Shown here in pieces: positions 1-64,000 of a stretch of 64,000 bases of DNA. How positions within the stretch are numbered: the first letter of the stretch is position 1; each line of letters opens with the position of its first letter. A program made the position numbers and the translations under genes. The notes beneath the pieces were generated by a model, which saw nothing but the letters and a program-made list of their open reading frames with translations, was not told the origin of the DNA and ran no database searches. Origin of the DNA: a virus (Duplodnaviria > Caudoviricetes); IMG/VR virus record IMGVR_UViG_3300017914_000750, positions 1 to 64,000 of that record. One strand, 5' to 3'.

Positions 1-743
1 CCTTTCTCTTCATTCTTATCTAATTCTTTAGTAACTTTCTTTTCAATCATTTTTAAGATATAAGATAATACTTCTAATCTAGGTGCAACATATTTACCTT
101 CTTTGATTTCTTCACCCATGACTAAACCTGATAATTGTTGAACCAAACTAGTTACTACTGGTGAAGGTAATGTTGCTAGCATTTCTAATTGTTTCTTTGT
201 AAGACCTTTGACTTTCTTTAATTGTTTTTTGATATTGACTGCTTCTTCAATTGACTCTGATTTACCTCTGACCTTTGCAGCCAAGTCTTTATCTGCACCA
301 CCCCATGTTCCTTTTGATTTAGTTACAAAAGAATTAACGCGTGCATGTCCCCATTGAACTGCTGTTGTTCCAGGCCTATGACCTGATTGCCATGCTTTTA
401 CACCTCTTTGGAATACTTGTTTTAGGATACCGAAAGGCATTCCTGTTTTGTCTGCTTTCTTTCTTAGAGATTTATCTGCAGCTGCTTCGTCAATAGTCTC
501 TCCGAACATTTTGTGATACTTTTTAGTGTGTTGTGAAGGTTTTGTATCTGCGTCTGCATCGCCTGGTGCTGGTTCTTTACTACCCTTTGCAAAATGAGCA
601 GCTCTTTTTTCTTTTGTTTTCTTAGACATCTTATCACCGTCTGCATCTGCAGCGTAATATTTCTTAGGTTGAGTTCCTTTCTTGTCCTCAACATCTTTAT
701 CTTGTTGTGTCCTTCTTAACTTTTCTCTTATATCTTCTAACAT
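1..743 (-). CDS. Hypothetical virion-associated protein with DUF5824-like domain (runs off the window start)
   Basis: Hand translation from ATG 743: MLEDIREKLRR...KKADKTGMPFGILKQVFQRGVKAWQSGHRPGTTAVQWGHARVNSF. Late promoter CATAAATA 5 nt upstream. Not in the ORF track because it is truncated. Confidence 0.75.
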   Translation of the reverse strand, partial: MLEDIREKLRRTQQDKDVEDKKGTQPKKYYAADADGDKMSKKTKEKRAAHFAKGSKEPAPGDADADTKPSQHTKKYHKMFGETIDEAAADKSLRKKADKTGMPFGILKQVFQRGVKAWQSGHRPGTTAVQWGHARVNSFVTKSKGTWGGADKDLAAKVRGKSESIEEAVNIKKQLKKVKGLTKKQLEMLATLPSPVVTSLVQQLSGLVMGEEIKEGKYVAPRLEVLSYILKMIEKKVTKELDKNEEK

Positions 744-751
744 AATACTAT

Positions 752-2032
752 TTATGACCTTTTTGCATCTAACTGAGACTGTTTCCATGAAAGTGCTTTC
801 TTATTACTTGGGAATGAACCAGTCCAACCTAATAGTTTTGAATAAAGTTTTTGTGCTTTTGATTCTAATGATTTCAAATCATCGTCATTTCTAACTTCAA
901 CAAAATCTCTACCAAATATACTCTTATAATCTTTTACATTTTTTTGTGCTTTTTCCCAATCACTCTTTACAATTTCGGGTGGAAGTTTTCTACTTCTCAT
1001 TGAATTTCTTTTTTGTGCATTGTCTAAATTTGTATTGACATAAACCATTTTATATTCATAACCTAGATTGTCTAACATTTTTTTATAGTTCTTAATCTTA
1101 CTTGACTTTGCAGAAGTTGTATCAAAGATTAATCCAAGTCTTCCAGCAAGATAGTTATCCATATTCTTACCAGTTATCTTCTTTGCTTTTGCACGGATTG
1201 GGTCAACCTGAGTAAAGTCTGCAGCTCTTAAATCTAATGATAAACCAGCTTTCTTTAAACCAATTTCAAATGCTTTATCAGTGTTTACCATTTTGAGTCC
1301 AAGTGCTTTTAGTGATAACTTATCTACAACTGTAGATTTACCACTTCCTGGCCCACCTGCTAGGAATACTGCTTTGAATACGCCTGGGTCATAAACACCC
1401 TCTGAAATTAAATCTTCTATCATGTAACTAGGTAAGGTTCCTTCATTGATACCCATACCCTTTCTGATATCTTTGTATAGTTTATCTGCAAGTTTTTTAC
1501 CCTTAGAAGGAACACCGTCTTTGAAGTTTTCAAAGTCTCCGTCCTCTGCATACTGTCTCATTTTACTTGCACTCATACCTGATACATCATCTGCATCAGG
1601 GTCTCTTTCTCCAGCTGATACAATATTGATATTCTTAAACTTGTAATATCCGTGTCTTGCTTTGACTCCGTTGTATTTGGTCAATAACATTTCGAACTCT
1701 TTTACTCGGTCTGAACCTACAACCATGTTTACATTTACATATTTCTTTTGGTGTAAGAAGTTTGCAATCTCAAATACAGTTCTGACATTTGCATCAACAA
1801 CGATTTTACCAAAGAACTTTCTAAGGTATTTTACTTTATCTTTGTGGTTTAGTGGGTTCTTTCTTTTGTCGTTTGAATGAGAAGAGAATAATAATACATC
1901 TGTTCCTCTACCAATTTGTAGAAGTTTCTTGACAAGTTTTTCATGTCCTGTAGTAGGTGGATTAAAACGACCAAAAGTGAATGTTGCACTCTTCTCTTTT
2001 TGTTCTGATACGAAATAATTAAATGTTTTCAT
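752..2032 (-). CDS. HIGH-family nucleotidyltransferase (cytidylyltransferase-like) fused to a P-loop kinase
   Basis: FGRFNPPTTGH and SASKMR motifs; C-terminal GGPGSGKS Walker A. Start MKTF overlaps the upstream stop (ATGA). Confidence 0.85.
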   Translation of the reverse strand: MKTFNYFVSEQKEKSATFTFGRFNPPTTGHEKLVKKLLQIGRGTDVLLFSSHSNDKRKNPLNHKDKVKYLRKFFGKIVVDANVRTVFEIANFLHQKKYVNVNMVVGSDRVKEFEMLLTKYNGVKARHGYYKFKNINIVSAGERDPDADDVSGMSASKMRQYAEDGDFENFKDGVPSKGKKLADKLYKDIRKGMGINEGTLPSYMIEDLISEGVYDPGVFKAVFLAGGPGSGKSTVVDKLSLKALGLKMVNTDKAFEIGLKKAGLSLDLRAADFTQVDPIRAKAKKITGKNMDNYLAGRLGLIFDTTSAKSSKIKNYKKMLDNLGYEYKMVYVNTNLDNAQKRNSMRSRKLPPEIVKSDWEKAQKNVKDYKSIFGRDFVEVRNDDDLKSLESKAQKLYSKLLGWTGSFPSNKKALSWKQSQLDAKRS

Positions 2033-3228: not shown

Positions 3229-3234
3229 AATAGT

Positions 3235-3263
3235 AGTATATCACAATGTTGTTGTGTCGTCTA
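3235..3263 (-). promoter_or_regulatory. Sigma70-type promoter, leaderless transcript
   Basis: TAGACG-17-TATACT with TGn extension; ATG follows 6 nt after the -10 box. Confidence 0.6.
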
Positions 3264-3284
3264 CTATTTATGGTTTTTTAGAGG

Positions 3285-3701: not shown

Positions 3702-3733
3702 ATAAATCTCCCGAATTTATGTTATACGGTTAT

Positions 3734-3910
3734 TTATATTTTCGAGAGAGGTGAGGAATGAAGTTTATCCTCTAAAGAATCAATTTTGAGTTGCACGATT
3801 TGTGCTTTTTTATTTTCACCTAGTTTTTTGAGCTGTCTCAATTCCTTCTTTAACTCTATTTTAAGAGTTATAGAATCAATAACTTCATTAGGTTTCAATG
3901 TTTTAGTCAT
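3734..3910 (-). CDS. Small basic hypothetical protein
   Basis: Start moved to MTKTLK; TATAAATA at 3922-3929. Confidence 0.6.
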   Translation of the reverse strand: MTKTLKPNEVIDSITLKIELKKELRQLKKLGENKKAQIVQLKIDSLEDKLHSSPLSKI

Positions 3911-3949
3911 AATAACAATATTATTTATATCACCTTCCAGTATATAATA

Positions 3950-3977: not shown

Positions 3978-3980
3978 AAC

Positions 3981-4056: not shown

Positions 4057-4061
4057 GTAAT

Positions 4062-11867: not shown

Positions 11868-12147
11868 TTTCTTTTTCTCTCTCGATTTGTTCTTGCATAA
11901 GTTCAACAAGAATGTCTCCCATAAGGTTGTTCAATTCACTATTATTTAGGAGTTCGTCCATGTTACCACCTTCGGGTAATCTACGGATTGTTCTCTCAAA
12001 ATTTAAATGATTCTTACCTTCGACAAATTCTACTTTACCGTATTGGTATACTAAATCTTTCCATTCACCGTCAATAATTTCTATTGCAGCGTCCTTTTCA
12101 TGAGGATTCTCTACGACTCTATATGTTTCACCGAACAATTTTGCCAT
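11836..12147 (-). CDS. Conserved T4-like hypothetical protein
   Basis: 103 aa; YQYGKV and MGDILVEL motifs. Confidence 0.7.
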   Translation of the reverse strand: MAKLFGETYRVVENPHEKDAAIEIIDGEWKDLVYQYGKVEFVEGKNHLNFERTIRRLPEGGNMDELLNNSELNNLMGDILVELMQEQIEREKENELRETKRAD

Positions 12148-12664
12148 AAATGTAATCCTCTAATTTCATTGATTGTTGTATATCATAGTTCTCATGAATG
12201 ATTAATCTATCCATGAGATTAAAATTCTTTCTGATATTATCAATCTGAGTTCTTCTACCTTGTAACCAAACTTCTGACTGAGTATCTCCTCTAAGTTTGT
12301 GTCTTTCTTTCTCAGTTTCTAAATCAACGGTAAGTATATAGACTTCAGCTTCATGGTTATCTAACAACCATTCAATGTCTTCATTACGAAAGTATCTATC
12401 TCCTTCTATAATAGTATGTTTATAACGAGGACTTATATCGTCTATAAATGTTCTGAATTGTGGTATAGAACCATGAGATAATTTATCTGTTCCACCAAAG
12501 GTTTCTCCTTCGGGATATCTTCCTACAACTAATATGTTATCATGTAATTGACATTTAAATAAAGGCATAGGTTCAATGTCAACTGGGTCGGGTAAACGAC
12601 TAATGAGATTTCGGGTAAGTGTTGACTTACCCGAACATGGTATTCCCCCAATTAGAAATATCAT
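12128..12664 (-). CDS. P-loop kinase of the type found in phage base-hypermodification loci
   Basis: GGIPCSGKST, GRY...FGGTDKLS, IIEGDR. Confidence 0.75.
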   Translation of the reverse strand: MIFLIGGIPCSGKSTLTRNLISRLPDPVDIEPMPLFKCQLHDNILVVGRYPEGETFGGTDKLSHGSIPQFRTFIDDISPRYKHTIIEGDRYFRNEDIEWLLDNHEAEVYILTVDLETEKERHKLRGDTQSEVWLQGRRTQIDNIRKNFNLMDRLIIHENYDIQQSMKLEDYIYGKIVR

Positions 12665-13656
12665 AATACTAAATCTCTCTCCCTAGGTAAACCACCTTGA
12701 TTTGGGTCGGCAGTTGTAATTTGTGGAAGAAAACCTTTGAACACGACTATGTCATGATACTCAGGCTTTAGATGTTTTTTCATCCAAGCTTTTGCTCTGT
12801 TGAAAGCTTTGAGATAATCTTTTCTTTGTTTCCCAATTTTGTCGTGAATTGGATTCTGTATGAAACCTACGATTTCAATTTTTGCACCATAGTTATCATA
12901 AAGATTTACTATGTCATAGATTTTACTACTAAAGTTACCTTCATATCTCACAAAACCACTTCTATCCCAAGCAGGATTAGAAGTATTTTTAACATAACCT
13001 TTAGTTGGTTGTCCTAATTGTTTTGCTTTTTTGTTTGCTTCGGGTGTTGTATATCCTACAACATTTTCTTCTCTAGTATTACTCTGTCTGAATCTCTTCA
13101 ATACAACTTCAACATCTGTATCTGAAAGAGTTCCATCAGCCATATCTCTGATTTCTGCTCTACAAACATCGTCATCTCTCCAATTGATACAATTTTCATT
13201 TTTCATTTCCACTAAACCTTTTTTGTATGTGTCTAGTGTATTTGGAGTTCCCTGTTTTCTATGGTCTTCTCCAGTATTGAATCGTCTTTTCCATTTGATT
13301 TTGTCTTTTGGAGACTCAAATTGTAAGACTTCGTAAAAGTATCTATTGACACCCATTGATAGTAACGCGGAAAGTCTTCCGAAACCCGAAATGAGTTCGA
13401 GTTGTCCGTCACCTCTCTCTTCAACAACCATAGGTTCTTTAGTGTAATCAACTCCAAATTGTTGAAAGTCTCTAACGATTCCATATTGGTTGTCTTCCAA
13501 AGCAATTTGCCTTGGTTGTTTTAGAACACCATTTTCGTCTGTTGTTACCAATTTAGACAACGGGCCGTCCTGTCTCCCGAGATTTTTTTTGATTCCATTA
13601 CCAGTAATGGGAGGGTAAGCTTTTCTGCTTCTCTCTATATCATAATTTAACTGCAT
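12661..13656 (-). CDS. ParB/Srx-like N-terminal domain protein
   Basis: PMVVEE...ELISGFGRLSAL; GGAG RBS. Confidence 0.6.
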   Translation of the reverse strand: MQLNYDIERSRKAYPPITGNGIKKNLGRQDGPLSKLVTTDENGVLKQPRQIALEDNQYGIVRDFQQFGVDYTKEPMVVEERGDGQLELISGFGRLSALLSMGVNRYFYEVLQFESPKDKIKWKRRFNTGEDHRKQGTPNTLDTYKKGLVEMKNENCINWRDDDVCRAEIRDMADGTLSDTDVEVVLKRFRQSNTREENVVGYTTPEANKKAKQLGQPTKGYVKNTSNPAWDRSGFVRYEGNFSSKIYDIVNLYDNYGAKIEIVGFIQNPIHDKIGKQRKDYLKAFNRAKAWMKKHLKPEYHDIVVFKGFLPQITTADPNQGGLPRERDLVL

Positions 13657-13710: not shown

Positions 13711-14700
13711 TTATAAAAATTCATCGAGCGACCCATGTTTATCTTTATTATGGGGCCCGATTGGATTCTCAGATTTACCTGCGATACCCATTGTTGCAAC
13801 ATGTTCATCACAATATGCAACACATGATAGTCTCACCCCGTTTCCACTGATAGGTGTAACTCCATGTAATTCGTTTGAATCTGCAATGATAACATCACCA
13901 TCGTCAGCGTCTACTGCAATCCCATATCTAGGGAATGTAAGGTATGCACCTTTGTAATCACCGATTCTGAATACGCACATTGTAGTCAAACCAAATTCTA
14001 AATCCTTTCCGTCTACATGAGCAGACATTTTTGCAGTTCCTTCTGTAGAATATCTGTTTGCAGAAAGAGCTGTTATAGGTGCGCCCCCGATATGATACTT
14101 ACTTTCAATATGGTTATCTGCAAAAGTTCTTTGCATTCTCCATACATCGGGGGCAGCTTTCTTTAATGCACTCTCATTTAATGGTGCAATTCTTTTTAGT
14201 ATTTCCCACTTAGGTTGGTTCTTTACTTTTTCCATCCAACCACTGGCACCAATCATTCCAGTAAATCTTCCTCTTTTGTATCCGATTAAAACTGAATGTA
14301 TTGCATTTGCTTCTGCAATACGATTGAACTTACCATTCTTTTTAAGTGGGTAATATGAATTAGGTGTTCTGAGTTTGTAGTGGACTCCTTCAATCAATCC
14401 TTTCTTTTTCATTTCTTCGTGGTCGATTGGCCCAGCTGCATTTGCTCTCATAGTAGATACATCGTCAATTGAAAACAAAGTATCTTTGATTTCTATTTCA
14501 TTTTTGACATGACCTTTTACTATGGCTGCAAGTAAAGGTTTCTCACCAAGACTTGCATGTGGTTTGTAAATCTTAATTATATCTGCGTCAACTCCTTTTG
14601 AAGTTACGACTTCGTCATAGGAATCTTCGGTAAGAAATTTACCGTTCCATTTGTCGAAGGTTTCTTTAAATCCTAAGTCTTTTGTTGCAGTGTATTCCAT
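13711..14700 (-). CDS. TET/JBP-like 2OG-Fe(II) dioxygenase
   Basis: HVD...LTFPRYGIAVD..DGDVIIAD..ELHGVT...RLSCVAY; overlaps the C5-MTase gene. Confidence 0.8.
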   Translation of the reverse strand: MEYTATKDLGFKETFDKWNGKFLTEDSYDEVVTSKGVDADIIKIYKPHASLGEKPLLAAIVKGHVKNEIEIKDTLFSIDDVSTMRANAAGPIDHEEMKKKGLIEGVHYKLRTPNSYYPLKKNGKFNRIAEANAIHSVLIGYKRGRFTGMIGASGWMEKVKNQPKWEILKRIAPLNESALKKAAPDVWRMQRTFADNHIESKYHIGGAPITALSANRYSTEGTAKMSAHVDGKDLEFGLTTMCVFRIGDYKGAYLTFPRYGIAVDADDGDVIIADSNELHGVTPISGNGVRLSCVAYCDEHVATMGIAGKSENPIGPHNKDKHGSLDEFL

Positions 14701-15932
14701 GGTTCTAAAATCTGTTTTTTAATTTCCTCTACAAGATAGTATAAACATAATGGTGCCACCATTAATCCTATTCTTGCACCCTTATCATTATAGTCACCAG
14801 TCATTTTGTAATCGTTAGGAAGAGTCATAAGTCTCACCATTTCTTTAGGAGTATATATTCTCTTCCCACTATAATGAAAATGATTACCACCCATGAACTT
14901 AGGTTGACACCCTTGTTCTGTTAGGGAATGAGCTGGTAAATGACTTGGAACAATTCTTGACATATAATAAGAATGTTTTTCATTCTCGGGTGGGATATTA
15001 CCTAATCTTATATTCTCTTGATACCAAGGTTTTACTATGTGGTCTCCAACAGAAATGTAAGATAGATTATCTCCGTTCACTCCGTCAACACCTTTACATG
15101 GTGTGCAATGTTCTAGTTCGGGGTCGGGGTGTTTTTCAAATCCATGAACCCAATGACCTTTTGAACTATCAATCATTGCTTGTTCTAAGTATTTTGCGTC
15201 TTCTATATTTTCGGGGTCTGTTTGCAAATCGTCAATTGCTTCCCCGATACTTGTTCTTTCATCACTTGGTTGTGGAAATAATCCACTCAAACACATAAAA
15301 GGCATTCCAATTGCATCTAAAACATCGTCTCTAACACCAACCATGAATACTCTTTCTCTCTTTTGAGGAACTCCATGTTCATGTCCTTTCATGATTTTCC
15401 ATGTTACTGAGTAACCAAGTGCTTCAAAATCTCTTACCATTTTGTTTAGGTGGTCTCTTGCATAATCCATTGATAGACCTTTTACATTCTCACATACAAT
15501 AACCTTAGGCATAAGGTCACCAGTGATTCTAATTTGTTCCCATGTTAGGTCTTCAATGTTTTGTTGTTTCATTCCATATGCAATCTTCTCTTGTTCCCAA
15601 CCTTCTCTTTTAGTTCCAGCCATAGAGAATGGTGGACAAGGTGGAGAACCGTCTAAGATATCTAACTCAAACTTTTTAAGTCCAGTAAGTTCCATGATAT
15701 CTTTACCTGTAACTTGTTTGATATCTTTACACTGGTGAACAGTGTTAGGAAAGTTCTCTAGATATGTGTCAACATGAATCTGTTGGAACTCATTCATGTA
15801 TCTGACATCACCACCTGCGAGTTTATATGCACACGATGAACCACCACCGCCTGCAAAAAATGTGATATAGTTGAATTCTTTTTTGGAACTGCGTTCCTGT
15901 AGGTCTTTTAAATTGTATTGAAAGTAAGTCAT
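14673..15932 (-). CDS. DNA (cytosine-5) methyltransferase
   Basis: FAGGGG (I), GSPPC (IV), ENV (VI), PQKRERVF (VIII), RLMTLP (IX), IGLMV (X). Confidence 0.93.
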   Translation of the reverse strand: MTYFQYNLKDLQERSSKKEFNYITFFAGGGGSSCAYKLAGGDVRYMNEFQQIHVDTYLENFPNTVHQCKDIKQVTGKDIMELTGLKKFELDILDGSPPCPPFSMAGTKREGWEQEKIAYGMKQQNIEDLTWEQIRITGDLMPKVIVCENVKGLSMDYARDHLNKMVRDFEALGYSVTWKIMKGHEHGVPQKRERVFMVGVRDDVLDAIGMPFMCLSGLFPQPSDERTSIGEAIDDLQTDPENIEDAKYLEQAMIDSSKGHWVHGFEKHPDPELEHCTPCKGVDGVNGDNLSYISVGDHIVKPWYQENIRLGNIPPENEKHSYYMSRIVPSHLPAHSLTEQGCQPKFMGGNHFHYSGKRIYTPKEMVRLMTLPNDYKMTGDYNDKGARIGLMVAPLCLYYLVEEIKKQILEPWNTLQQKT

Positions 15933-15968
15933 GTCTCTATTATACACTGACAATAGAGACATTGACTA
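15931..15968 (-). promoter_or_regulatory. Leaderless promoter of the MTase inside an 11-bp perfect inverted repeat
   Basis: TAGTCA-18-TATAAT-6-ATG; ATGTCTCTATT (15931-41) / AATAGAGACAT (15952-62). Confidence 0.65.
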
Positions 15969-15984: not shown

Positions 15985-16506
15985 TTATGCAACGAAGTCA
16001 TCTCCTTCGTTCCACTCACAACCTGTAAGACCACCAGCTTGTAATCCTTTTAAAGTTCTTAGAACTTCATTGTGATTTCTACCAGTGTCTAATGCATTGA
16101 TTGATGCATGTTGGATAGTTCTATCTTTATCAAAGATAAATGTTGCACGATAACAAACACCTTCTTCTTTATTGACGATACCTAATGTATGTGATAATCC
16201 TAGTCCACAATCAGCTGCAAGTGTATGTCTGATATTACCTATCAACTCATTATCTTGTTTCCATGCTAATTTACAGAACTCATTATCTCCACTGATTCCA
16301 ATGACATTTGCATGGTCGACTAAAGTATCGAAACCAGCAATCTCTGTTGGACATATAAAGGTAAAGTCTTTTGGATAAAAGTAAACTACTGACCAGTCAT
16401 GGTTAGATGGTGGATATTTTTCATCTACTTCAACTCTCACAAATTCATTATTTTCATTGATTCCCTGTAGTGAGAAGGCAGGGAATTTGTCACCGACTGA
16501 TAACAT
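15985..16506 (-). CDS. ahpC: 2-Cys peroxiredoxin (AhpC/TSA)
   Basis: FYPKDFTFICPTE, GRN..EVLR, C-terminal GCEW. Confidence 0.93.
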   Translation of the reverse strand: MLSVGDKFPAFSLQGINENNEFVRVEVDEKYPPSNHDWSVVYFYPKDFTFICPTEIAGFDTLVDHANVIGISGDNEFCKLAWKQDNELIGNIRHTLAADCGLGLSHTLGIVNKEEGVCYRATFIFDKDRTIQHASINALDTGRNHNEVLRTLKGLQAGGLTGCEWNEGDDFVA

Positions 16507-16524: not shown

Positions 16525-16575
16525 AGATTAGACCCTCAGTATAACACCAAAGGTCTAATCTGTAAATAGGGTTTT
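16525..16575 (-). promoter_or_regulatory. Promoter of ahpC with a 10-bp inverted repeat
   Basis: AAAACCCTA-TTTACA-17-TATACT; AGATTAGACC/GGTCTAATCT flank the -10 box. Confidence 0.65.
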
Positions 16576-16984
16576 AAGAAATCTTGATAGTGACTGGTTT
16601 ATCCTCTTCGGGAATAACCTTCTCTAACTTAACAGACAAGATACCGTCTTTTAACTCTGCACCTTCGATTATAACATCGTCTGCAAGAGTCCAACTTCTC
16701 TTGAATGCTCTAGAAGCTAATCCTTTATGGACAAAGTCCTTAGAATCTTCTTCTGTTTTACCCTCAATGATAAGTAGATTTTTCTCTTTAGTAATAGAGA
16801 TATCTTTCTTACCAAAACCAGCAACTGCAAGTTCAACGGTGAAATGTTCATCGTCTTCCTTTACAACATTGTAAGGTGGGTAGTTAGTATTAGTGTGGGA
16901 TTGAAGTCTCTCCAAGTCTTCGAAGTATCTATCAAATCCAATTGCGAACGGTCTGAATTGACCAAATATATCTAAATGCGTCAT
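16574..16984 (-). CDS. hsp20: Small heat shock protein Hsp20 (IbpA-like)
   Basis: IGFD, NYPPYN, ELAVAGF, HKGLASRAF, DGIL, IPEE. Confidence 0.96.
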   Translation of the reverse strand: MTHLDIFGQFRPFAIGFDRYFEDLERLQSHTNTNYPPYNVVKEDDEHFTVELAVAGFGKKDISITKEKNLLIIEGKTEEDSKDFVHKGLASRAFKRSWTLADDVIIEGAELKDGILSVKLEKVIPEEDKPVTIKIS

Positions 16985-27746: not shown

Positions 27747-28992
27747 TGTCTTCATTATACTCTGAAGTTTCTGTTTCGTCAACTGGGTTTTCCTCATTGA
27801 GGTCAATCCCAGCATCGATTTTTGAGTAGAGGTCAAGAATAGAGTTTCTTGTCTCTTCGTCAAATCTTGAAATGCACATTTCAATAGACTTGAGTCTATC
27901 TTTGAACATTCTGAAAGCATTCACAATGTGAACCAGTCTTCTAGTAGTAACAACATCATCGATACCACCTTCGTAGTATGTTTTTCTGATTATGTCAGCC
28001 CAGTCGACAAGTTTATCAGTGAACTCGGAATCAACCTCACCAGTCAATCCCATTTCTTTCTCAAGAATTTTCTTCTCAGTTTTCACTGGTGGATATTCTT
28101 GTTGCATTGTGATTGCAAATCTTTCCAACATGGCTTCGTTCATGATTTGAGTTCCAATGAACTTTCCATCTTCGGAACCTTGTCCTTTAGTATTTGCAGT
28201 TGCAAGAATCGTGAACCCAGCTTTTGGAGTCACCCACTCACCAGTTTTCTTGATTAGGTAACCTTTACCTTCAAGAACTGATTGTAAACACATTAACTTG
28301 TTAGAACCCAAGTCAACTTCGTCAAGAAGAAGGACTGACCCTTTTCTCATTGCTTTGACAACAGGGCCTTCTCTGAAGACAATGTTACCATTGACCAAAG
28401 TATGACCACCCATTAGGTCGTCCTCATCAGTCTCAATAGTAATGTTGACTCTGTAAAGTTCTCTCTTCAATTGAGCACAAATTTGTTCAACCATTAAGGT
28501 TTTACCATTACCACTCAAACCAGTAATGAATACTGGGAAGAATATTTTAGACTTGATTATGTTCTTGACATCTTTGAAATGTCCAAAAGGAACATAGTTT
28601 GACATTTTCTCGGGAATGATTTTGACATTGTCGTCAAGAACATTCACGGACTCAGTTGCAGCTGCAACAGGCATGTTATTTGGAACTGCCCTGGCAGGAA
28701 CTGCCACTGGTTGTGGTGCAACTGGAGTCTCACCACCGTGAGAATATCCACCGTTGTATCCACTGATTACAGCTTCAAGGTTGAAGAGAACAGACCCATC
28801 GGGTTGTTTCTCTTTGAAAGGGAACCTAGAGGATTTCACCCAGTAAGGGAGATAACCATTGGTTGCCTCTTTTATCTCACCCCTCGTAAAAGAGGTTTGA
28901 TTAGGATAAGCACCGACCAGTGCATCAATCACTTCGGTCTTATCGGGAGTAAGGGGAAAATCCTTACCATTTACAATTATTGATTTCTTCAT
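27739..28992 (-). CDS. cobS: CobS/MoxR-like AAA+ ATPase
   Basis: GLSGNGKT, LLLDEVD, TANTKG, ERF. Confidence 0.9.
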   Translation of the reverse strand: MKKSIIVNGKDFPLTPDKTEVIDALVGAYPNQTSFTRGEIKEATNGYLPYWVKSSRFPFKEKQPDGSVLFNLEAVISGYNGGYSHGGETPVAPQPVAVPARAVPNNMPVAAATESVNVLDDNVKIIPEKMSNYVPFGHFKDVKNIIKSKIFFPVFITGLSGNGKTLMVEQICAQLKRELYRVNITIETDEDDLMGGHTLVNGNIVFREGPVVKAMRKGSVLLLDEVDLGSNKLMCLQSVLEGKGYLIKKTGEWVTPKAGFTILATANTKGQGSEDGKFIGTQIMNEAMLERFAITMQQEYPPVKTEKKILEKEMGLTGEVDSEFTDKLVDWADIIRKTYYEGGIDDVVTTRRLVHIVNAFRMFKDRLKSIEMCISRFDEETRNSILDLYSKIDAGIDLNEENPVDETETSEYNEDNV

Positions 28993-39157: not shown

Positions 39158-39258
39158 AAGTATACACTTCCTATCATATATCCACAAAGGAAAAATGCAA
39201 TTGACCAGCCTGGAAATTCTTTACAGAACTCGATTATTCTTTCGAAGTATTCAATCAT
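39154..39258 (-). CDS. Small membrane peptide (34 aa)
   Basis: MIEYFERIIEFCKEFPGWSIAFFLCGYMIGSVYL; ATGA coupling. Confidence 0.55.
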   Translation of the reverse strand: MIEYFERIIEFCKEFPGWSIAFFLCGYMIGSVYL

Positions 39259-39356
39259 ATGGAAGGACTTACCCCCATAATTGAAAGCAAAAAGATAGAA
39301 CAGAGCGTAAATAACTCTAAATGGTCTTTAAGTTGTTCTATCTTTTTTTGTGACAT
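39255..39356 (-). CDS. Small membrane peptide (33 aa)
   Basis: MSQKKIEQLKDHLELFTLCSIFLLSIMGVSPSI. Confidence 0.5.
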   Translation of the reverse strand: MSQKKIEQLKDHLELFTLCSIFLLSIMGVSPSI

Positions 39357-39380
39357 ATCTTTCTATATGCCACAACAATC

Positions 39381-39551
39381 TCAATACCCTGCTGACGCAA
39401 GGAACATGATTCCCAAGGGAAGTAATATCGGAAGAGTCAATAGTGTTAGAAATTCTATTCCTTCGATAGCCTTTGATGTAATCTCCAAGTCTCTAATGTA
39501 TTCGAGTTCAGACACCATGCTCTTCACAGCTCTTAAAACTGTTGTGGTCAT
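39381..39551 (-). CDS. Small membrane protein (56 aa)
   Basis: MTTTVLRAVK...EFLTLLTLPILLPLGIMFLASAGY; AGGA RBS. Confidence 0.6.
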   Translation of the reverse strand: MTTTVLRAVKSMVSELEYIRDLEITSKAIEGIEFLTLLTLPILLPLGIMFLASAGY

Positions 39552-39652
39552 GGTTTTTTTCCTAAATTAATTATAAACACACTGAATAATATGATATAAC
39601 TCAAAATTATTCGTTAGTATATATATGAATTGAAAGTCTAAGAAATATATTT

Positions 39653-40165
39653 CTAATGAATTTTTTTCGGGTCGGTAGGTTTTTGTGCAAAGGTAAATTC
39701 GTCTTCTAATTCCCACCCTTCTTCTTCGAGTCGTTCTAACATTCTTTCTTCTTTTTCAGTGATTGGCCCACCAGTAGATTCCATGAGTTCGTCTATCACT
39801 CTTTGAATGTATTCTCTATGAACTTTATCTCCACTCTTTGATAAAGGTATATTACCACCTTCAACCATGTTAAACCATTTTGAACTTGCTTCGTCATACA
39901 ATCCTACAAATTGATTGTTCATATTATTTCTATGTGCAATCAAATCATAAGGTATAACAACAGTTGGGTCTGAGGACAAGGGAGCGTATGGATAAAAAGT
40001 TGCAAGGGTTGTAGTTTTATCGGGAACAACTTGTAATGAACACATCATAGGTAAGGTTACCTCTACACCTTTGTCGGTGTCTCTAACCATGCCTACGATT
40101 TCTGCGCCAGTTCTAAGTTTTAGAACTTCGTATCTTTGTGGAATAAGGTCTTTAGGTGTTGTCAT
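39653..40165 (-). CDS. Conserved T4-like hypothetical protein (Sm-like N-terminus)
   Basis: VLKLRTGAEIVG; usual position downstream of uvsW. Confidence 0.7.
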   Translation of the reverse strand: MTTPKDLIPQRYEVLKLRTGAEIVGMVRDTDKGVEVTLPMMCSLQVVPDKTTTLATFYPYAPLSSDPTVVIPYDLIAHRNNMNNQFVGLYDEASSKWFNMVEGGNIPLSKSGDKVHREYIQRVIDELMESTGGPITEKEERMLERLEEEGWELEDEFTFAQKPTDPKKIH

Positions 40166-41570
40166 TTAAATCAAATTGTAAAATTTCGTAAGGAAATTTC
40201 TCCTCGTTGTAAATATTTATACGGTCTTTAAGGTGACCAAGTGTATAATTATCACATTGTAGGTCGTCTGCTATATCAAACAAACGCATTGATTCTTTAC
40301 CTTCTACCTTTCTTAAACCTCTTCCTATCGATTGTAGGTTTCTGATTCTTGATTTACTAGGACTTGCAAATACGATATTATCTATTCTTTTTATATTAAC
40401 ACCAGTAGAGAATGTTCCATAAGATGCAAGTATGGTATCGTTCTCTGCCTTCTCTACTATCTCTCTAACAGCTTCTCTGTCTTCCGTGTCTGTTCCACCA
40501 TATACATAGTGTAAGTTTTCACCCAGTCTCTTAAACATTTTCTCATGTAGAAGAACTCCATGTTTTTCGACATATTGGAATAATACGAGTGTATTTCCCG
40601 ATAAACTATACACAAGATTACAGATAAATTCGTTTCTTGCCTCATTAGAAACAAGGTAATCCATTTCTTCTTGGTATGTTAATTTCTTCTGTTTAGTATG
40701 ACGAAGTATGACACATTGTATATCTAATTTTGCAATAGTTCCTTCGTCCATGAGTTGGTATGACGATATTACTTTCTTTACAGGCCCGAATAGACCTTCT
40801 AATTGTAATCTATGACACTCTGACCCGTCTAATGTTCCTGTAGTTCCTATACGAACTGCAGTCTTTCTCATTTTCTCTAGTATACCTTTTAACACATTTG
40901 CTTTAAATAAATGTGCTTCGTCTCCTACTACTACTTCGAAACTTTCCAAGACTTCTTTAGGAGCCTTACTAAATGACTGCCATGTAGTGATTGTGATGTC
41001 CGAATCAAATACAGGCTGACCCGAATAAATCTTACAAATCTTTTCATCATATCCATACTCCTCAAAGTCTTTTGCCATTTGCTCTACCAATGAAGTAGTA
41101 GGGACAATGATAACAGTTTTCTTATTATAATACCTTGTAAGCATATATATAATCAACGACTTTCCACTTGCAGTAGGTGAAAGTAATAGTTGTCTACCAT
41201 ATTGAACTGCAGTTCTGAATGCGTCTAATTGGTAATCTCTTGGTTCAAAAGGAAGTCCTAAATGTTTAATAAAGTCCTCATCGGCTTGTCTTGTTTTTTC
41301 ACCGAGGATATCCCCTATACCTTTTATTTCATACCCTCTCTCCCTACAGAACTCGTCTACATAAGGAAGGAGACCGATATAAATCTTATTTGTTTTTATG
41401 CTGAAGAGTCTGACCTTCCCGTCCCAATACCTATTCTTTACGGAAGGCATAAACTTTGCATTTGGAACGGTGAACGAGAAGAAGTCGAAGAGGTCTCTAG
41501 CTAGACCGTCATCACATTCTACTTTCATGAAGACTTCGTCAATCTTCTTTAGGTTTATTTCAGAGGCCAT
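40152..41570 (-). CDS. uvsW: SF2 helicase UvsW
   Basis: WDGK, PTASGKS, DEAH, QSIGRGLR. Confidence 0.96.
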   Translation of the reverse strand: MASEINLKKIDEVFMKVECDDGLARDLFDFFSFTVPNAKFMPSVKNRYWDGKVRLFSIKTNKIYIGLLPYVDEFCRERGYEIKGIGDILGEKTRQADEDFIKHLGLPFEPRDYQLDAFRTAVQYGRQLLLSPTASGKSLIIYMLTRYYNKKTVIIVPTTSLVEQMAKDFEEYGYDEKICKIYSGQPVFDSDITITTWQSFSKAPKEVLESFEVVVGDEAHLFKANVLKGILEKMRKTAVRIGTTGTLDGSECHRLQLEGLFGPVKKVISSYQLMDEGTIAKLDIQCVILRHTKQKKLTYQEEMDYLVSNEARNEFICNLVYSLSGNTLVLFQYVEKHGVLLHEKMFKRLGENLHYVYGGTDTEDREAVREIVEKAENDTILASYGTFSTGVNIKRIDNIVFASPSKSRIRNLQSIGRGLRKVEGKESMRLFDIADDLQCDNYTLGHLKDRINIYNEEKFPYEILQFDLNDNT

Positions 41571-44072: not shown

Positions 44073-45389
44073 TTACAGAATGTTGCTTACTGCAAATTTT
44101 CTGTAGTATTGGTTAGTTCCAGCACTTGCTAAACCGTCTGAAGGTGTTGAACCTACGAATGGGTTAGAAACCATACCATATCTAGTTTTGAAACCGATTT
44201 TTGGTTGGAAAGTGTTTTCGCCAACTGCTCTCACCATTTGTAGTGGAACATATGGGCAATAGAACATACCTGCGTCATAAGGATTTGAACCTCTGTAACC
44301 AACTGTTAAGTAATCAACACCAGCATATGGGTCGATGTATACTTTAACTCTTCCGTTAAGAACACCAGCAAATGTATTGCCTGTGTCATCAACATTTAAG
44401 TTAGTTGATAAAGCTGGTGCATAATCTAACACTCCAGCCATTGAAAGTGCTGATGCAACATCAGAAGAACAAAGGATAAAGTTACCTTTACCTCGTCTTG
44501 TTTCTTTTGCTATTACATTGCTTTCTCTTTCGATTTGGAACAATAATCCCTTGAATTTTTCTACAGACCATCTACCGTTTGCGTCAACATCTAAGTTAAA
44601 TGTTCCAGCAGAAGCAGTTGCTGATGCACCTGTTTTTGCTTGTAAGTTAACATTTCTTACAACTTCTCTGTTGATTTCTGCAAGGATTTCTGATGATAGA
44701 ATATTTGCAAGTTCTGATTCTGCATCAAGACCGTGGATTGCTTTGAGGTCTTGTGCTAATTCTAATGTATACTCTGCTTTTAGTGCTCTTGACTTCGCAG
44801 TAACAGTTGCCTTTTCAATTGTGAAAGACATTTCGTTGAAATGGTTACCTGAACCACTTCCGTCACCTAAAGCTTCTGCAGCTGCAGTAGACATTCCTGC
44901 TACTGTATCGCCTGCATAAGTCTCTGGGCCTGATGCGTCAAAAGGGTCACCAACTGGGTCTGAGTCTGCAGTGTTATCGATGTCGTCTGAGTTCCCTGCT
45001 GAGAATTTTGAACGAGCTTCGTTGTGTAATGCTTCAGATTGGTTTAATCTGTCAGCATTTGCATCGTCTTGATATCTTGCTTTCATAGCAAAGATAAGAC
45101 CTGTTGGGCCAGTCATTGGTTGAACACCGCAAATGTCGTATGCAACGAGATTTGGCATAGCTCTTCGAACTAGTGATATTAGGATTGGATCCCAGTTACT
45201 AATTCCAGTGCCAGTAGAGTTTAAAGGTGCAGCTTCCTCAAGAGTTGCTCTGTCTTCGTTAAGAGCTTTCTCTTGGTTTTCAAGTATAACTGCTGTGACT
45301 GCCTTCTTGTAGTTGTCCTCGATTTTTGGTAAATCGGAATGTTCTAGAATAGGCTCCCACTTCTCTTGTAAGTTTTCTGATAAAAACAT
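44073..45389 (-). CDS. gp23: Major capsid protein
   Basis: LVRRAMPNL, GVQPMTGPTG, RALKAEY, YCPYVPL, GFKTRYG. Confidence 0.98.
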   Translation of the reverse strand: MFLSENLQEKWEPILEHSDLPKIEDNYKKAVTAVILENQEKALNEDRATLEEAAPLNSTGTGISNWDPILISLVRRAMPNLVAYDICGVQPMTGPTGLIFAMKARYQDDANADRLNQSEALHNEARSKFSAGNSDDIDNTADSDPVGDPFDASGPETYAGDTVAGMSTAAAEALGDGSGSGNHFNEMSFTIEKATVTAKSRALKAEYTLELAQDLKAIHGLDAESELANILSSEILAEINREVVRNVNLQAKTGASATASAGTFNLDVDANGRWSVEKFKGLLFQIERESNVIAKETRRGKGNFILCSSDVASALSMAGVLDYAPALSTNLNVDDTGNTFAGVLNGRVKVYIDPYAGVDYLTVGYRGSNPYDAGMFYCPYVPLQMVRAVGENTFQPKIGFKTRYGMVSNPFVGSTPSDGLASAGTNQYYRKFAVSNIL

Positions 45390-60376: not shown

Positions 60377-60920
60377 CTTGTATGACTGAAGAAGGTGGAA
60401 GAGTCATTATATAATCTTCTAAATCTCTTAGAGTGTCTTCTCTAGTTACAGATATGTCTCTGTAAATACCGTCTGCAACTGTATATGTTGCATCTGCAAA
60501 CTCTAAGACCCTTCTTGCTTCAGACCTGTATGGGTGTGCTGAACCTTCTCTACCAGCATATATAGCGTCAAGAAAATTTTCAAATCCATATGCTTCACAT
60601 TGAACTTCTATATTTCTTTTTACTGCGTCATGAACTCTATCAATGAATTGATTATTAAGAGTTACACCATGAGGTGGTTCTGAATTTTCAATGTATCTCT
60701 CAATTGCATCTCTATCTGTTTCTGATAAAGGTTGAGTGTCTTGTTCATCAAAAGGTTTGTCTTTATCCCATTCTAAAATTTTTACTTCGATTTGGTCATA
60801 TACCAACACATCAAAGTCAAACCCTAAGTCTGGCTTATCAACATTTTCAAATCTATATTCTAATCCGTTTGGTTTTCTTACTAATAAATTTCCAAACTCA
60901 CAATATACTAATGCATTCAT
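60369..60920 (-). CDS. Hypothetical protein resembling tail-fibre assembly helpers
   Basis: C-terminal AYGFENF..A..A....YRSEA pattern; weak. Confidence 0.5.
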   Translation of the reverse strand: MNALVYCEFGNLLVRKPNGLEYRFENVDKPDLGFDFDVLVYDQIEVKILEWDKDKPFDEQDTQPLSETDRDAIERYIENSEPPHGVTLNNQFIDRVHDAVKRNIEVQCEAYGFENFLDAIYAGREGSAHPYRSEARRVLEFADATYTVADGIYRDISVTREDTLRDLEDYIMTLPPSSVIQDG

Positions 60921-60940
60921 AATATCTCCATTCTAACATA

Positions 60941-62479
60941 TTAGTTGTTTTTTGGCAACCCGTTTTTTACTCTATCGTAGTAACCTAACATATTTATGTT
61001 ACTCGTATCCATGCCTTTAATCCAAGGGCCACCTCTTGTATAATGGATTGCATGTTCTGTTTTTTGAAATTTTGTATCGAATCCTTCTGTTGCAATTTTA
61101 CCATGTGGTATTTTACTTACTTTATCAGTCCATTGAAACTGATGTAGATATTGTCCACTTGCAGTATTAATTAATTCGGGTGTTAGTTTCCTACAATCTT
61201 CATGACCATTATTAAAAATCATCATACTAGACCATAATTTTTTAGGATATGATACATTCTTTTCTCCACCCATTTTAACTTCGTCATGGTGTTCAAAATC
61301 ATATTGAACACATGCTACTGCATTGTCGGGGTCTAAGAAATAGAATAAAGGTAAGGGAGACCTTTGCCATATGTAATCGTTATCAATGAAGAAACTAAAT
61401 CCTTCATAGTTTTCTAAATATGGAATTAAGAATCTACTGTAAGTAAATTCAGTAGACTGTTGTGCATACTCTCTATTATACACTGGAATTTTAGAATAGT
61501 CAAGGCGTTTGACTTCTATTTTATAATCTTCAAAGAACTCTTCTCCTACACCTTTACATTTTGACTTTTCTATGCTATCATGTATTGACTTTTCTGCAAC
61601 TTCATGTATAATATCGTCATGACTTGAATCATAACCAATATAGATATTGATTGGTTTTTTCTTTGTTAGTTTATGCACCTTTCTATTAAAAGCATGAACT
61701 TGTTTTCTAAAGTCTGTTCCCCCATGGTCTATTGGAACATTGATTTCTATTTTTCCTTGGTCTGTCCATATACCACTTATATTTTTTCTTCCCTTTGGAA
61801 CTAATGAAGTCCAAAAATCTAAAAGGTTATCTACATTTAGACTTGGGTGGTTTGAAAAACAGTTTGAATAGTCTGTAACTAAACAAGTCATATCGGGTTC
61901 GTCCATTGCTTGGAATGATTGACACCTCATAGAGCCTGGGTGTATATTAAGTTTACCGTTTTTAGTGTGTCCTTGGATAGGTTGCCAGAGACCTTCTTTT
62001 TGAATATTGTTTATTAACCAGTGTGCTTTTGCAGCGTGATAATAAACTGCAGCCACTTGATTTTCTTGAACTGGGTCTTCGTCTTGACCAGTTATTTGTT
62101 CATAGACACCGTCTTCAATCATATAGTCCATTGAACCACCACCAATAGGGTGATTTTCTCTTAAATCTGCAGTCCAACCTTTATGAACAAAAGTAAAGTA
62201 ATTTAATGAAGGATTTATTAAACCACCCCATTCTTGTAGGTCTCCTTCGTTCATTAATTTTTTGATATGTTTCCATGTAACTAATCTAATAGGTGGTAAT
62301 GTATCCAAAATATGTTGCCATATTTCTTTTCTGTCTTCGATAGGTTTATGAGCTCTTTCACCTTCTGCCCATAATTGGGGAAGAATAAATTGTTCTTTAG
62401 GACGAGTTTCATATGTGAAACTATCGTTAAATAGTTCTTTTGCTCGTTCAAGGGTTTTGATTTCTTCAAATCTGTCCAT
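60941..62479 (-). CDS. Glycosyltransferase (GT-A, GT8-like) fused to an unknown N-terminal domain
   Basis: IYIGYD, STEFTYSRFLIP, DND, WSSMMIFN, HYTRGGPW. Confidence 0.82.
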   Translation of the reverse strand: MDRFEEIKTLERAKELFNDSFTYETRPKEQFILPQLWAEGERAHKPIEDRKEIWQHILDTLPPIRLVTWKHIKKLMNEGDLQEWGGLINPSLNYFTFVHKGWTADLRENHPIGGGSMDYMIEDGVYEQITGQDEDPVQENQVAAVYYHAAKAHWLINNIQKEGLWQPIQGHTKNGKLNIHPGSMRCQSFQAMDEPDMTCLVTDYSNCFSNHPSLNVDNLLDFWTSLVPKGRKNISGIWTDQGKIEINVPIDHGGTDFRKQVHAFNRKVHKLTKKKPINIYIGYDSSHDDIIHEVAEKSIHDSIEKSKCKGVGEEFFEDYKIEVKRLDYSKIPVYNREYAQQSTEFTYSRFLIPYLENYEGFSFFIDNDYIWQRSPLPLFYFLDPDNAVACVQYDFEHHDEVKMGGEKNVSYPKKLWSSMMIFNNGHEDCRKLTPELINTASGQYLHQFQWTDKVSKIPHGKIATEGFDTKFQKTEHAIHYTRGGPWIKGMDTSNINMLGYYDRVKNGLPKNN

Positions 62480-62505
62480 AATATAAAGTATTTAGTTGTT
62501 AAAAA

Positions 62506-63312
62506 TTAACTACCAATCGGAGTTGCAGGCCACTGTTGGTTTACATCTCCATCCCATCTTGCTTCAGGTGTTCTACCCTGTCTTGCATATGTAAATGGTG
62601 ACCTATGGTCGTATGTAAATGGATTTTGACCAGTTCTCTGATAAGTTGAAGGTGACCTATAATCATATGTAAACGGTGTTTGACCCGTTCTCTGATATGT
62701 TGAAGGAGACCTATAATCATATGTGAAAGGTGTCTGACCAGTTCTTTGATAAGTCGAAGGCGACTGATAATCGTAAGTAAATGGTGTTTGACCAGTTCTT
62801 TGATATGTTGAAGGAGACCTATGGTCATATGTAAATGGAACCTGTTGGTCTCTTATATTTGGTTGTTGTGCTGACCTAATGTTAGGTTCTTGAGCATTTG
62901 CAATATAAGGACTAGGTTGTTGTATTGACCTAATATTAGGTTCCTGTGCATTCACTGGATTTCTATAGGTGAATGGTGACCTATGAGAGTAAGTATTAGG
63001 TTGTCTCGCAGGTGCTTGATATGTAAATGGTGACCTATAGTTATAAGTAAACGGGTTCCTTGCTGGTGCTTGATATGTGAAAGGAGACCTGTAATGATAT
63101 GTAAACGGGTTCCTTGCTGGTGCTTGATATGTAAACGGTGACCTATAGTGATAAGTAAACGGGTTCCTTGCTGGTGCCTGATATGTAAATGGCACCCTAT
63201 GATGATAAGTAAATGGGTTCCTAGCATCGTTCTCATATATGAAAGGTTGCCTAAAAGAAAAGGGAACTGGCTGTCTAGCAGAAGAAATAAATGGTGATTG
63301 ATATGTTGGCAT
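62506..63312 (-). CDS. Pro/Tyr/Thr/Gln-rich tandem-repeat protein
   Basis: PFTY repeats; no Lys, Leu or Cys; GAGGAG RBS. Confidence 0.85.
   Translation of the reverse strand: MPTYQSPFISSARQPVPFSFRQPFIYENDARNPFTYHHRVPFTYQAPARNPFTYHYRSPFTYQAPARNPFTYHYRSPFTYQAPARNPFTYNYRSPFTYQAPARQPNTYSHRSPFTYRNPVNAQEPNIRSIQQPSPYIANAQEPNIRSAQQPNIRDQQVPFTYDHRSPSTYQRTGQTPFTYDYQSPSTYQRTGQTPFTYDYRSPSTYQRTGQTPFTYDYRSPSTYQRTGQNPFTYDHRSPFTYARQGRTPEARWDGDVNQQWPATPIGS
62623..62838 (-). repeat. 4 x 54-nt coding tandem repeat (PFTYDxRSPSTYQRTGQT)
   Basis: Visible in the translation; copies differ mostly at synonymous sites. Confidence 0.9.
63001..63216 (-). repeat. 4 x 54-nt coding tandem repeat (PFTYHYRSPFTYQAPARN)
   Basis: Visible in the translation; copies differ mostly at synonymous sites. 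Confidence 0.9.
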
Positions 63313-63326
63313 TCTCCTCTATCCTC

Positions 63327-64000
63327 CTACTTCTGTTGTCTGTTATGAGCAAGTATATCATGTGCAAAATAGTTTTGATTTCCACTTACTTTTGTTAAAT
63401 GGTATACTTTATGTAGACCTTCTAGTTTTTCTATACAGTCGACTGCATGTTTAGGTGTGTTTTGTAAAATACATGATATTGTATCAATGATTTTATCACC
63501 TTCTTCAACTACACCTGAGATTTCTCCACCCCATGCTGTTCCTTCTGCAACTTCTTGTTCCCAATCTTCCATGCTTATAACACACCAACCTTTTCCGTCA
63601 ACTTTGATTGGGTGTCCACCTGTTAGTTTTACACCTCTACCACCGAAAGATATTTCGTATAATTCACATTCTCTTGGAACCATTAGTTCTTCTACTTCAC
63701 CTACCATGATTGTTAAATTCTCATCTGCAGTCATAACCATATCACCAACTTCAACTTTTTGAATTGGCATATATGAACCGTCTTCCATCCAAATCATAGT
63801 ATCTTCTGCGAAGCAACCACCACCTCGACCACCGCCTGGGAAGAAGACTGGTTGTCTTGCTTGGAAGGTGAATGGGTTTTGGAATGCACCAGTATTCGGT
63901 TGCTGAAGGTTTGCAATATAGGTAAATGGTTGCTGAGCACTTCTAATATTCGGTTGTTGAATATTCGCAGGATATGTAAATGGTTGTCTTGCACTTCTAA
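63327..64000 (-). CDS. Repeat protein with a C-terminal Hint (intein-like) domain; 5' end lies outside the window
   Basis: Frame is open to the window end: ...QQPNIRSAQQPFTYIAN...PGGGRGGG-CFAEDT...LTGGHP...NYFAHDILAHN-RQQK; Cys1 codon at 63813-63815. Confidence 0.88.
   Translation of the reverse strand, partial: RSARQPFTYPANIQQPNIRSAQQPFTYIANLQQPNTGAFQNPFTFQARQPVFFPGGGRGGGCFAEDTMIWMEDGSYMPIQKVEVGDMVMTADENLTIMVGEVEELMVPRECELYEISFGGRGVKLTGGHPIKVDGKGWCVISMEDWEQEVAEGTAWGGEISGVVEEGDKIIDTISCILQNTPKHAVDCIEKLEGLHKVYHLTKVSGNQNYFAHDILAHNRQQK

Follow-up and report, generated by a model that had tools for sequence, protein, structure and literature searches.

Introduction

Phages classically avoid restriction sites or protect their DNA by methylation, and the avoidance of palindromic sites in lytic phages is exemplified by the GATC-free Staphylococcus phage K and by T7. 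In this study we analysed a stretch of 64,000 nucleotides (hereafter the window) from an uncultured marine T4-like myovirus. Short restriction-type words are depleted in it unless they overlap a GC step, and it encodes a C5-cytosine DNA methyltransferase (MTase), which is proposed to write a shielding mark at GC.

Post-replicative cytosine hypermodification limited to GpC is known from many viral metagenome contigs. The C5-MTases of clade I phages methylate GpC[C/T/G] but not GpCA, and the TET enzymes paired with them oxidise 5-methylcytosine (5mC) in Gp5mC (Burke et al. 2021, PMC8256090). Clusters of clade I/A sit beside genes for heat-shock protein (HSP), redoxin and either P-loop kinase (P-LK) or glycosyltransferase (PMC8256090). 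M.CviPI is a chlorovirus C5-MTase with dinucleotide GpC specificity (cited in PMC8256090). Synechococcus phage S-B43 encodes SpCmoX, a cytosine C5-carboxymethyltransferase that depends on a GC motif, and HhaI is blocked by the mark it makes (PMC12783734). Marine Myoviridae-like viral metagenome-assembled genomes (MAGs) carry modified RGCY, CCWGG, GGWCC and CCNGG, and the most frequent viral mark there has a GC core (Hiraoka et al. 2022, PMC8919816). The modification of CCWGG, GGWCC and CCNGG there indicates that these same words matter to other marine myoviruses. GpC-limited marks have been argued to be unlikely to protect a whole genome (preprint 10.1101/2023.12.21.572611).

The gene cluster in the window is itself a member of the published MTase/TET family. 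Its two central genes are the following.

14673-15962, minus strand: C5-cytosine DNA methyltransferase of 429 amino acids, proposed writer of the GC mark (PF00145, E 4e-49, positions 1-324 of 324)
13711-14700, minus strand: TET/JBP-type 2-oxoglutarate-Fe(II) dioxygenase of 329 amino acids, overlapping the end of the MTase gene (PF12851, E 1.6e-12, 47.4 bits versus a cut-off of 34.9)

A first-pass annotation of the window, made by eye from the sequence, had stated that characterised phage MTase/TET pairs favour GpC, in agreement with PMC8256090. It had further proposed that modified GpC cytosines shield overlapping restriction-type sites and that unshielded sites were purged.

Source DNA and genomes compared

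The window is the first 64 kb of the 93,736-bp IMG/VR contig IMGVR_UViG_3300017914_000750 (CheckV completeness 52%). It has 36% G+C, and its genes lie almost all on the minus strand. The contig is that of a T4-like myovirus (gp23 matches PF07068, E 5e-149) and was placed in the pelagimyophage/Melnitz group. Among cultured phages, the closest to it are Pelagibacter phage Mosig (gp23 DNA 78% identical) and Methylophilales phage Melnitz (MTase 55% identical).

Two sets of relatives were used. One comprised 80 IMG/VR loci (960 kb) with encoded MTases 56-100% identical to that of the window. The other comprised eleven near-full genomes, several of which are incomplete contigs. Nine of these (about 1.18 Mb) carry the footprint described below: this contig, G011, G016, G013, G015, G014, G012, Melnitz and G001 (IMGVR_UViG_3300020055_000005). 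The two others, G002 (140 kb) and the complete Mosig genome (MT647606.1), do not.

Restriction-type words are purged unless they overlap a GC step

The footprint extends over the whole window.

1-64,000, continuing to the contig end at 93,736, no strand: genome-wide footprint (counts and codon-shuffle null)

We called a word flanked when a G before it or a C after it creates a GC step, as in GCCWGG or CCWGGC. By direct count, the window contains 23 CCWGG, and all of them are GCCWGG or CCWGGC. GGWCC, CCGG, GTAC and ACGT are absent, and GATC occurs once, at 45188. A second-order Markov model of the window predicted 103 ACGT, 47 CCGG, 190 GATC and 174 GTAC. AGCT (141), TGCA (548) and GGCC (41), which contain GC, are common. 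The remaining 29.7 kb of the contig contains no GATC, GTAC, ACGT, CCGG or GGWCC and adds 14 CCWGG, all flanked, so that the contig has 37 of 37 CCWGG in GC context.

The contig was then compared with a codon-preserving null, in which the synonymous codons of each of 97 open reading frames (ORFs) were shuffled 200 times, with the proteins and the per-gene codon usage kept. GTAC was found 0 times against 258.5 ± 12.3 expected, ACGT 0 against 172.3 ± 9.6, GATC 1 against 268.6 ± 12.6, CCGG 0 against 42.7 ± 5.5 and GGWCC 0 against 40.6 ± 4.5. Unflanked CCWGG was absent (39.4 expected), and flanked CCWGG was found 37 times (11.1 expected). A scan of all 4- to 6-mers against this null returned further purged words, namely CCAGA (12 versus 136 expected), CGWCG (6 versus 66), GGATG (11 versus 90), CACAG (31 versus 105) and GAATTC (6 versus 40).

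Two of these words, which the first-pass annotation had not noticed, show the G-flank exemption again when split by flank. Unflanked CCAGA was found twice against 126.5 expected, and both copies directly adjoin a GC; GCCAGA was found at its expected level (10 versus 10.3). For CGWCG, 2 unflanked copies were found against 53.3 expected and 4 flanked copies against 13.4. Asymmetric words were low in both orientations: CCAGA 2 and TCTGG 10 (63 and 73 expected), GGATG 1 and CATCC 10 (33 and 57 expected). This result indicated selection on DNA, not on translation. In sum, short and mostly palindromic words are depleted while proteins and codon usage are held constant, which is the pattern of restriction-site avoidance.

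These counts bear out the observations of the first-pass annotation on the exclusive GC context of CCWGG and on the absence of CCGG, GTAC, ACGT and GGWCC, for the window and for the contig. The codon-aware comparison, with CCWGG split by GC flank, gave strong depletion and no normal level of unflanked CCWGG, GGWCC or GATC, either of which would have spoken against its reading. The six CCWGG sites that it listed are real, but they start at 562, 1383, 5288, 43092, 51966 and 63835; its coordinates pointed at the flanking G.

An assembly or sequencing artefact was rejected as the source of the pattern, which is common to about 90 independent metagenome contigs and to the cultured Melnitz.

Forced sites are recoded to contain or touch a GC

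Pro-Gly (CCN-GGN) always spells CCNGG, and Gly-Pro (GGN-CCN) always spells GGNCC, so these sites cannot be removed without changing the protein. Pro-Gly codon pairs account for 35 of the 37 CCWGG on the contig. An example, the only two CCWGG of other origin and the sole GATC of the contig are given here.

561-566, minus strand: forced site at a Pro-Gly pair, CCA-GGC (GCCTGG on the plus strand); 22 further such sites lie in the window
28690-28694, minus strand: the only coding CCWGG other than Pro-Gly, in GCC-AGG-GCA (Ala-Arg), GC-flanked on both sides (codon listing)
39209-39213, no strand: the one CCWGG between genes, G-flanked in AGCCTGG (count and codon listing)
45188-45191, minus strand: single GATC on the contig, within the Asn-Trp-Asp-Pro of gp23, where Trp-Asp-Pro is TGG GAT CCA (count and codon listing)

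The codons at the forced sites differ strongly from those elsewhere on the contig. GGC makes up 79 of 2114 Gly codons overall (3.7%) and 26 of 33 after Pro (79%); Pro-Gly is spelled CCW-GGC in these 26 cases or is preceded by a G-ending codon. About half of all GGC codons adjoin a Pro codon. All 25 Gly codons that precede Pro are GGC or GGG, which puts a GC inside GGNCC. Asp before a codon starting with C is GAC 204 times and GAT once. The codon preferences that had been noticed by eye, GGC in Pro-Gly, GGC or GGG in Gly-Pro and GAC in Asp-Pro, were thus found again by count.

The single GAT is the one in gp23 Trp-Asp-Pro. The synonymous GAC would create GGACC there, as the first-pass annotation had pointed out and as count and codons confirm. 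This GATC is also kept in G011 and G016. G013 has no GATC in 146 kb and encodes Trp-Asn-Pro at the gp23 position, an amino-acid change of the major capsid protein at the only unavoidable site. The Pro-Gly dipeptide occurs at 0.43 of its expectation on the contig versus 1.09 in Mosig. Selection therefore reaches the proteins too, in the frequency of Pro-Gly and in the gp23 residue of G013.

We also considered translation or codon bias as the cause of the recoding. In Mosig, homologous proteins use the "forbidden" codon pairs, with GGT or GGA in Pro-Gly and likewise in Gly-Pro, so the recoding is not explained by translation. Together with the depletion in both orientations and a null that keeps codon usage, this led us to reject translation or codon bias.

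The footprint accompanies a cytosine methylase gene across relatives

Among the 80 MTase loci, 140 of 143 CCWGG and 47 of 50 CCGG are flanked, and the 15 GGWCC are confined to three loci. All three unflanked CCWGG sit in the first 4 kb of one locus, L032 (IMGVR_UViG_3300000168_000002). This patch (L032:1-4000) also holds the two unflanked CCGG and two GGWCC of that locus; the sites lie partly in a 613-amino-acid ORF of higher G+C. Either the assembly is chimeric or, as the patch also suggests, a footprint-less phage has recently recombined here.

In the nine footprint genomes, all CCWGG (395 of 395) and all CCGG (66 of 66) are flanked, and GGWCC is absent. In contrast, G002 and Mosig have 63 of 215 CCWGG and 43 of 90 CCGG flanked, and 125 GGWCC. 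CCAGA and CGWCG behave in the same way: CCAGA is flanked in 96 of 120 cases where it is purged versus 84 of 1783 where it is not (p 4e-87), and CGWCG is GCG-flanked in 24 of 35 cases where purged versus 5 of 46 where not (p 9e-8).

The MTase and the TET are the only ORFs shared by eight footprint genomes and missing from both non-footprint genomes. The MTase is present in 8 of the 9 footprint genomes and absent from G002 and Mosig, and the phyletic pattern of the TET is identical. No PF00145, PF12851 or PF01555 match was found in Mosig or G002, with Melnitz and S-B43 as positive controls for PF00145 and G001 for PF01555.

The sets of purged words differ by lineage. GATC, GTAC, ACGT, CCAGA, GGATG, CGWCG, TTCGAA and CTGCAG are each purged in some genomes and normal in others. 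Only this contig has lost GAATTC and CACAG in this way, even though the gp23 of G011 is 90% identical. The lists of purged words evolve fast. Mosig, which was isolated on Pelagibacter HTCC1062, has 0 ACGT, 0 CGCG, 2 CGWCG and 19 GATC in 141 kb.

One small ORF was seen beside the variation in ACGT. This ORF, of 140 amino acids and with a weak SprT-like/metallopeptidase match (E 1e-4, below the cut-off), coincides exactly with the retention of ACGT: all three genomes that keep the word have it (Melnitz 39297-39719, locus L083; G013 40877-41320; G001 99784-100209), and none of the eight in which ACGT is purged does. This pattern may be due to chance, or the ORF may encode an inhibitor of an ACGT-directed agent.

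The exemption fits GC[C/T/G]

The exempted CCNGG and CCAGA sites are all GCC. Among the CACAG copies of the contig, GCT-type flanks are over-represented (p 0.001), and GCA-type flanks only marginally so (p 0.02). The exemption thus fits a mark at GC[C/T/G] and not at GCA, with direct evidence for GCC and weaker evidence for GCG and GCT. The base preceding GCCWGG is free (C, G, T or A), and an RGCY specificity was rejected on this ground.

TGCA is strongly enriched, with 855 on the contig versus 555 under the codon null, and footprint genomes have 8-11 per kb versus 4.2 in Mosig. The trinucleotides GCC/GGC occur at 0.43-0.66 of expectation in the contig and relatives versus 1.21 in Mosig. The phage may thereby retain its GC steps in GCA, the unmodified context, and hold the number of target sites low. 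G002 is intermediate, so TGCA enrichment was rejected as a clean marker of MTase carriers.

The predicted modification cassette in the window

The closest solved structure to the MTase is SpCmoX (PDB 8yf3, E 9e-71). The alignment contains the segment DGSPPC, with the SPPC catalytic motif present. The segment RVGRMVPP of 8yf3 is RIGLMVAP in the window enzyme, which has Leu at the position of the carboxymethyl-binding R350 and was therefore not assigned to CmoX.

AhpC and HSP20 genes lie upstream of the MTase, and two further genes lie downstream of the TET.

16574-16984, minus strand: HSP20 (PF00011, E 1e-17)
15985-16506, minus strand: AhpC-type redoxin (PF00578, E 3e-22)
12661-13656, minus strand: 331-amino-acid cassette protein, no Pfam or PHROG match
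12128-12664, minus strand: P-loop nucleotide-kinase-like protein of 178 amino acids (AAA_18 and Ploopntkinase3, weak, below cut-offs)

This layout is that of clade I/A: the C5-MTase has the full motif set, the TET gene is parallel to it, on the same strand and within five genes, and HSP20, redoxin and kinase-like genes are neighbours, the last by the weak sub-cut-off Pfam matches only. The kinase-like protein is a candidate for a later hypermodification step. Among the genomes compared, homologues of the 331-amino-acid protein were found only in G011 (91%), G012 (31%) and G013 (24%), and a ParB domain in it was not confirmed by Pfam. G016, G015 and G014 are without the kinase gene and the 331-amino-acid gene.

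A different methylase occupies the locus in G001

G001 has the footprint and gave no PF00145 or TET match above the family cut-off. We rejected it as a counter-example, because synteny showed that it does have the locus, bounded by the lysozyme gene and AhpC/HSP20, and that a different, SPPY-type methylase is encoded there. This is a 482-amino-acid protein of the PF01555 N6_N4_Mtase family with a TSPPYF motif, encoded beside a redoxin gene.

G001 130389-131834 (locus L228:10386-11834), minus strand: PF01555 methylase of 482 amino acids

It was found in G001 only among the genomes compared, and a PDB search with it gave no match. TSPPYF is typical of N4-cytosine methylases, and we predict that the protein is one, acting at GC-type sites to give N4-methylcytosine (m4C). 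Counting this predicted enzyme, a cytosine methylase is always present in the footprint genomes, with differing predicted chemistry. Since G001 carries the footprint with an N4-type methylase and no TET, the TET may not be needed.

At the same locus, G002 has a cytidylyltransferase-like gene and a gene for a 374-amino-acid protein with a DruA (Druantia) domain (L210:2534-5337, minus strand). The annotation of Mosig includes a DUF4338 protein. It seems that DNA-modification or anti-defence genes are exchanged at this locus.

Discussion

We consider it probable that this phage has purged unshielded words and shields the forced sites with a cytosine mark at GC. Two anti-nuclease tactics would be combined here, both recorded in the coding sequence. 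By one, about ten type II/IIS/III-like words (GATC, GTAC, ACGT, CCNGG, GGNCC, CGWCG, CCAGA, GGATG, GAATTC and CACAG) have been removed, mostly by synonymous substitution. By the other, the C5-MTase (14673-15962) would mark the C of GC, probably in GC[C/T/G], which may then be converted to 5-hydroxymethylcytosine or beyond by the products of the TET and kinase-like genes. Such a mark would block the cutting of any target word overlapping it. With Pro-Gly written as CCW-GGC or xxG-CCW-GGN and Gly-Pro as GGC/GGG-CCN, each forced site contains or touches a GC. The proposal of the first-pass annotation, a GpC shield and a purge of unshielded sites, gains support from CCAGA and CGWCG, from the nine genomes, from the absence of the pattern in MTase-less relatives and from the exclusivity of the two genes. 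The depletion, the flank rule, the codon recoding and the co-occurrence with a cytosine methylase gene across relatives are demonstrated by the sequences; we infer the presence of the mark on virion DNA, its chemistry, its exact context and the host origin of the selecting nucleases. Host restriction enzymes are the default reading of the cutting agent.

Several results weigh against this explanation. The GC mark is deduced from sequence statistics and homology. A structure-homologue search aligned the target-recognition domain of the MTase with no characterised enzyme, so its specificity is not established by sequence. Although GCCGG would count as shielded, CCGG is absent from the contig, and its exemption is visible in the relatives only. 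Under the codon null, GCTA/TAGC is depleted on the contig despite its GC (138 versus 352, both strands), and so is GCAGCA/TGCTGC (4 versus 60, both strands), which is purged in most relatives, Melnitz excepted. The first-pass annotation was right that AGCT, TGCA and GGCC are common, but not all GC-containing words are so: GCGC (4) and CGCG (7) are rare. Evidently, the mark does not protect every GC-containing word. GCATCC gives no rescue of GGATG (9 of 44 versus 238 of 1372), although this agrees with the GpC[C/T/G]-not-GpCA specificity published for clade I. In addition, the relatives share ancestry, and their site counts are not independent events.

The hosts are a further difficulty. The known hosts of this phage group, SAR11 and OM43, are reported to have almost no restriction-modification (R-M) systems (PMC7029224, PMC8919816). 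A SAR11 R-M system was reported in only one of more than 100 genomes (PMC7029224), and in marine metaepigenomics few host R-M systems of prokaryotic MAGs match viral motifs (PMC8919816). Both reports favour an explanation in which the shield is the same and the purged words are targets of the phage's own nucleases, for example those used in host DNA degradation, or of competing mobile elements, the phage being safe by lacking the sites. The absence of ACGT and CGCG from Mosig, which comes from a SAR11 strain, points the same way. Nevertheless, we regard this explanation as unlikely. About ten specificities would be needed in one phage, which is too many, and the purge sets shift between close relatives without a matching gene gain, as for GAATTC and CACAG against G011. 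A phage-encoded nuclease that tracks the purge was rejected by the presence or absence of all ORFs across the 11 genomes: no gene tracks the ACGT or GATC purge, the clade-specific candidates have no nuclease domain, and the MTase and TET are the only genes exclusive to footprint genomes, though the contigs are incomplete and such a comparison would miss a specificity change inside a conserved nuclease. The "putative endonuclease" of Melnitz was also rejected in this role, as it is a homologue of T4 RNase H, a 5'-3' exonuclease. An explanation without any modification, in which nucleases simply cut poorly when the site is preceded by G or followed by C, seems very improbable to us. The flank rule alone gives no reason for the tolerance of flanked sites, and G001 keeps the rule without the C5-MTase/TET cassette, as this explanation would allow. 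However, the same rule applies to four unrelated words (CCWGG, CCGG, CCAGA and CGWCG) and is confined to genomes that encode a cytosine methylase; Mosig and G002, where the words are at normal levels, do not follow it, and the G001 locus holds another cytosine-type methylase.

More weight, though still less than an even chance, belongs to the possibility that the mark exists with a writer other than this C5-MTase, or that the TET is not needed for it. The TET could act on thymine, and plain 5mC (m4C in G001) would then be the shield. T-dioxygenase activity belongs to those 5mYOX enzymes that are ParB-associated and linked with P-loop kinases (PMC13229309), and the case of G001, with its predicted N4-cytosine methylase and no TET, and of the three genomes without the kinase and 331-amino-acid genes, would fit. 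Against it, the phyletic patterns of TET and MTase are exactly alike in 8 genomes, the TETs of clade I/A, which has the same HSP20/redoxin/P-LK neighbourhood, oxidise Gp5mC, and Pfam did not confirm a ParB domain in the 331-amino-acid protein.

As a record of natural selection, the footprint is evidence for three points: that the phage carries the mark on its own DNA, that the mark blocks sequence-specific cutting, and that it is effective through the recoding of the remaining genome, down to the codons chosen at every Pro-Gly and Gly-Pro. The cultured Melnitz carries the footprint, so that enzyme target, protection and host nucleases are directly testable there. The footprint is also a cheap computational route to the motifs of uncharacterised phage DNA-modification enzymes. 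We suggest tentatively, at somewhat under even odds, that a short-motif cytosine mark with codon-placed GC is a general anti-nuclease strategy of abundant marine myophages of streamlined bacteria, which the phage can retune by recoding. If this is true, the fast-changing, lineage-specific purge lists would point to many sequence-specific nucleases, overlooked in genome surveys, in SAR11/OM43-type hosts or their mobile elements.

Comparison with known systems

Our literature search found no account of a phage that avoids words except where they overlap its own modification motif, nor of forced sites recoded to touch such a motif. Classical avoidance is similar in the synonymous depletion of short restriction-type words and in the lineage dependence of the avoided sets. 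Here, in contrast, avoidance is conditional on overlap with the modification site, is complete for at least five words at once, and reaches dipeptide frequencies and one capsid residue. M.CviPI is likewise a virus-encoded C5-MTase acting at GpC, but it comes from a eukaryotic algal virus; to our knowledge, no site-recoding footprint has been described for it.

SpCmoX is the closest solved homologue of the MTase, and S-B43 is also a T4-like marine phage. The window enzyme differs in the Leu at R350, and no CmoA or CmoY was seen in the cassette. In S-B43, CCWGG is neither avoided nor shielded (62 of 71 unflanked in 50 kb). The footprint was thus rejected as a general property of GC-modifying phages, since S-B43, whose enzyme is GC-specific by experiment, avoids neither CCWGG nor GGWCC. 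The viruses among the marine MAGs carry several site-specific methylases (2.2 per genome on average; PMC8919816), whereas this lineage seems to pair one short-motif enzyme with genome recoding.

The clade I/A C5-MT/TET clusters are the nearest match. They share adjacent, co-oriented C5-MT and TET genes, with HSP20, AhpC redoxin and P-loop kinase alongside, and they too come from marine T4-like contigs. The published enzymes were characterised in E. coli and no genome footprint was reported for them (PMC8256090); here the genome appears to be built around the mark. The footprint therefore argues for the opposite of the view in 10.1101/2023.12.21.572611, namely that a sparse GC mark would protect a genome.

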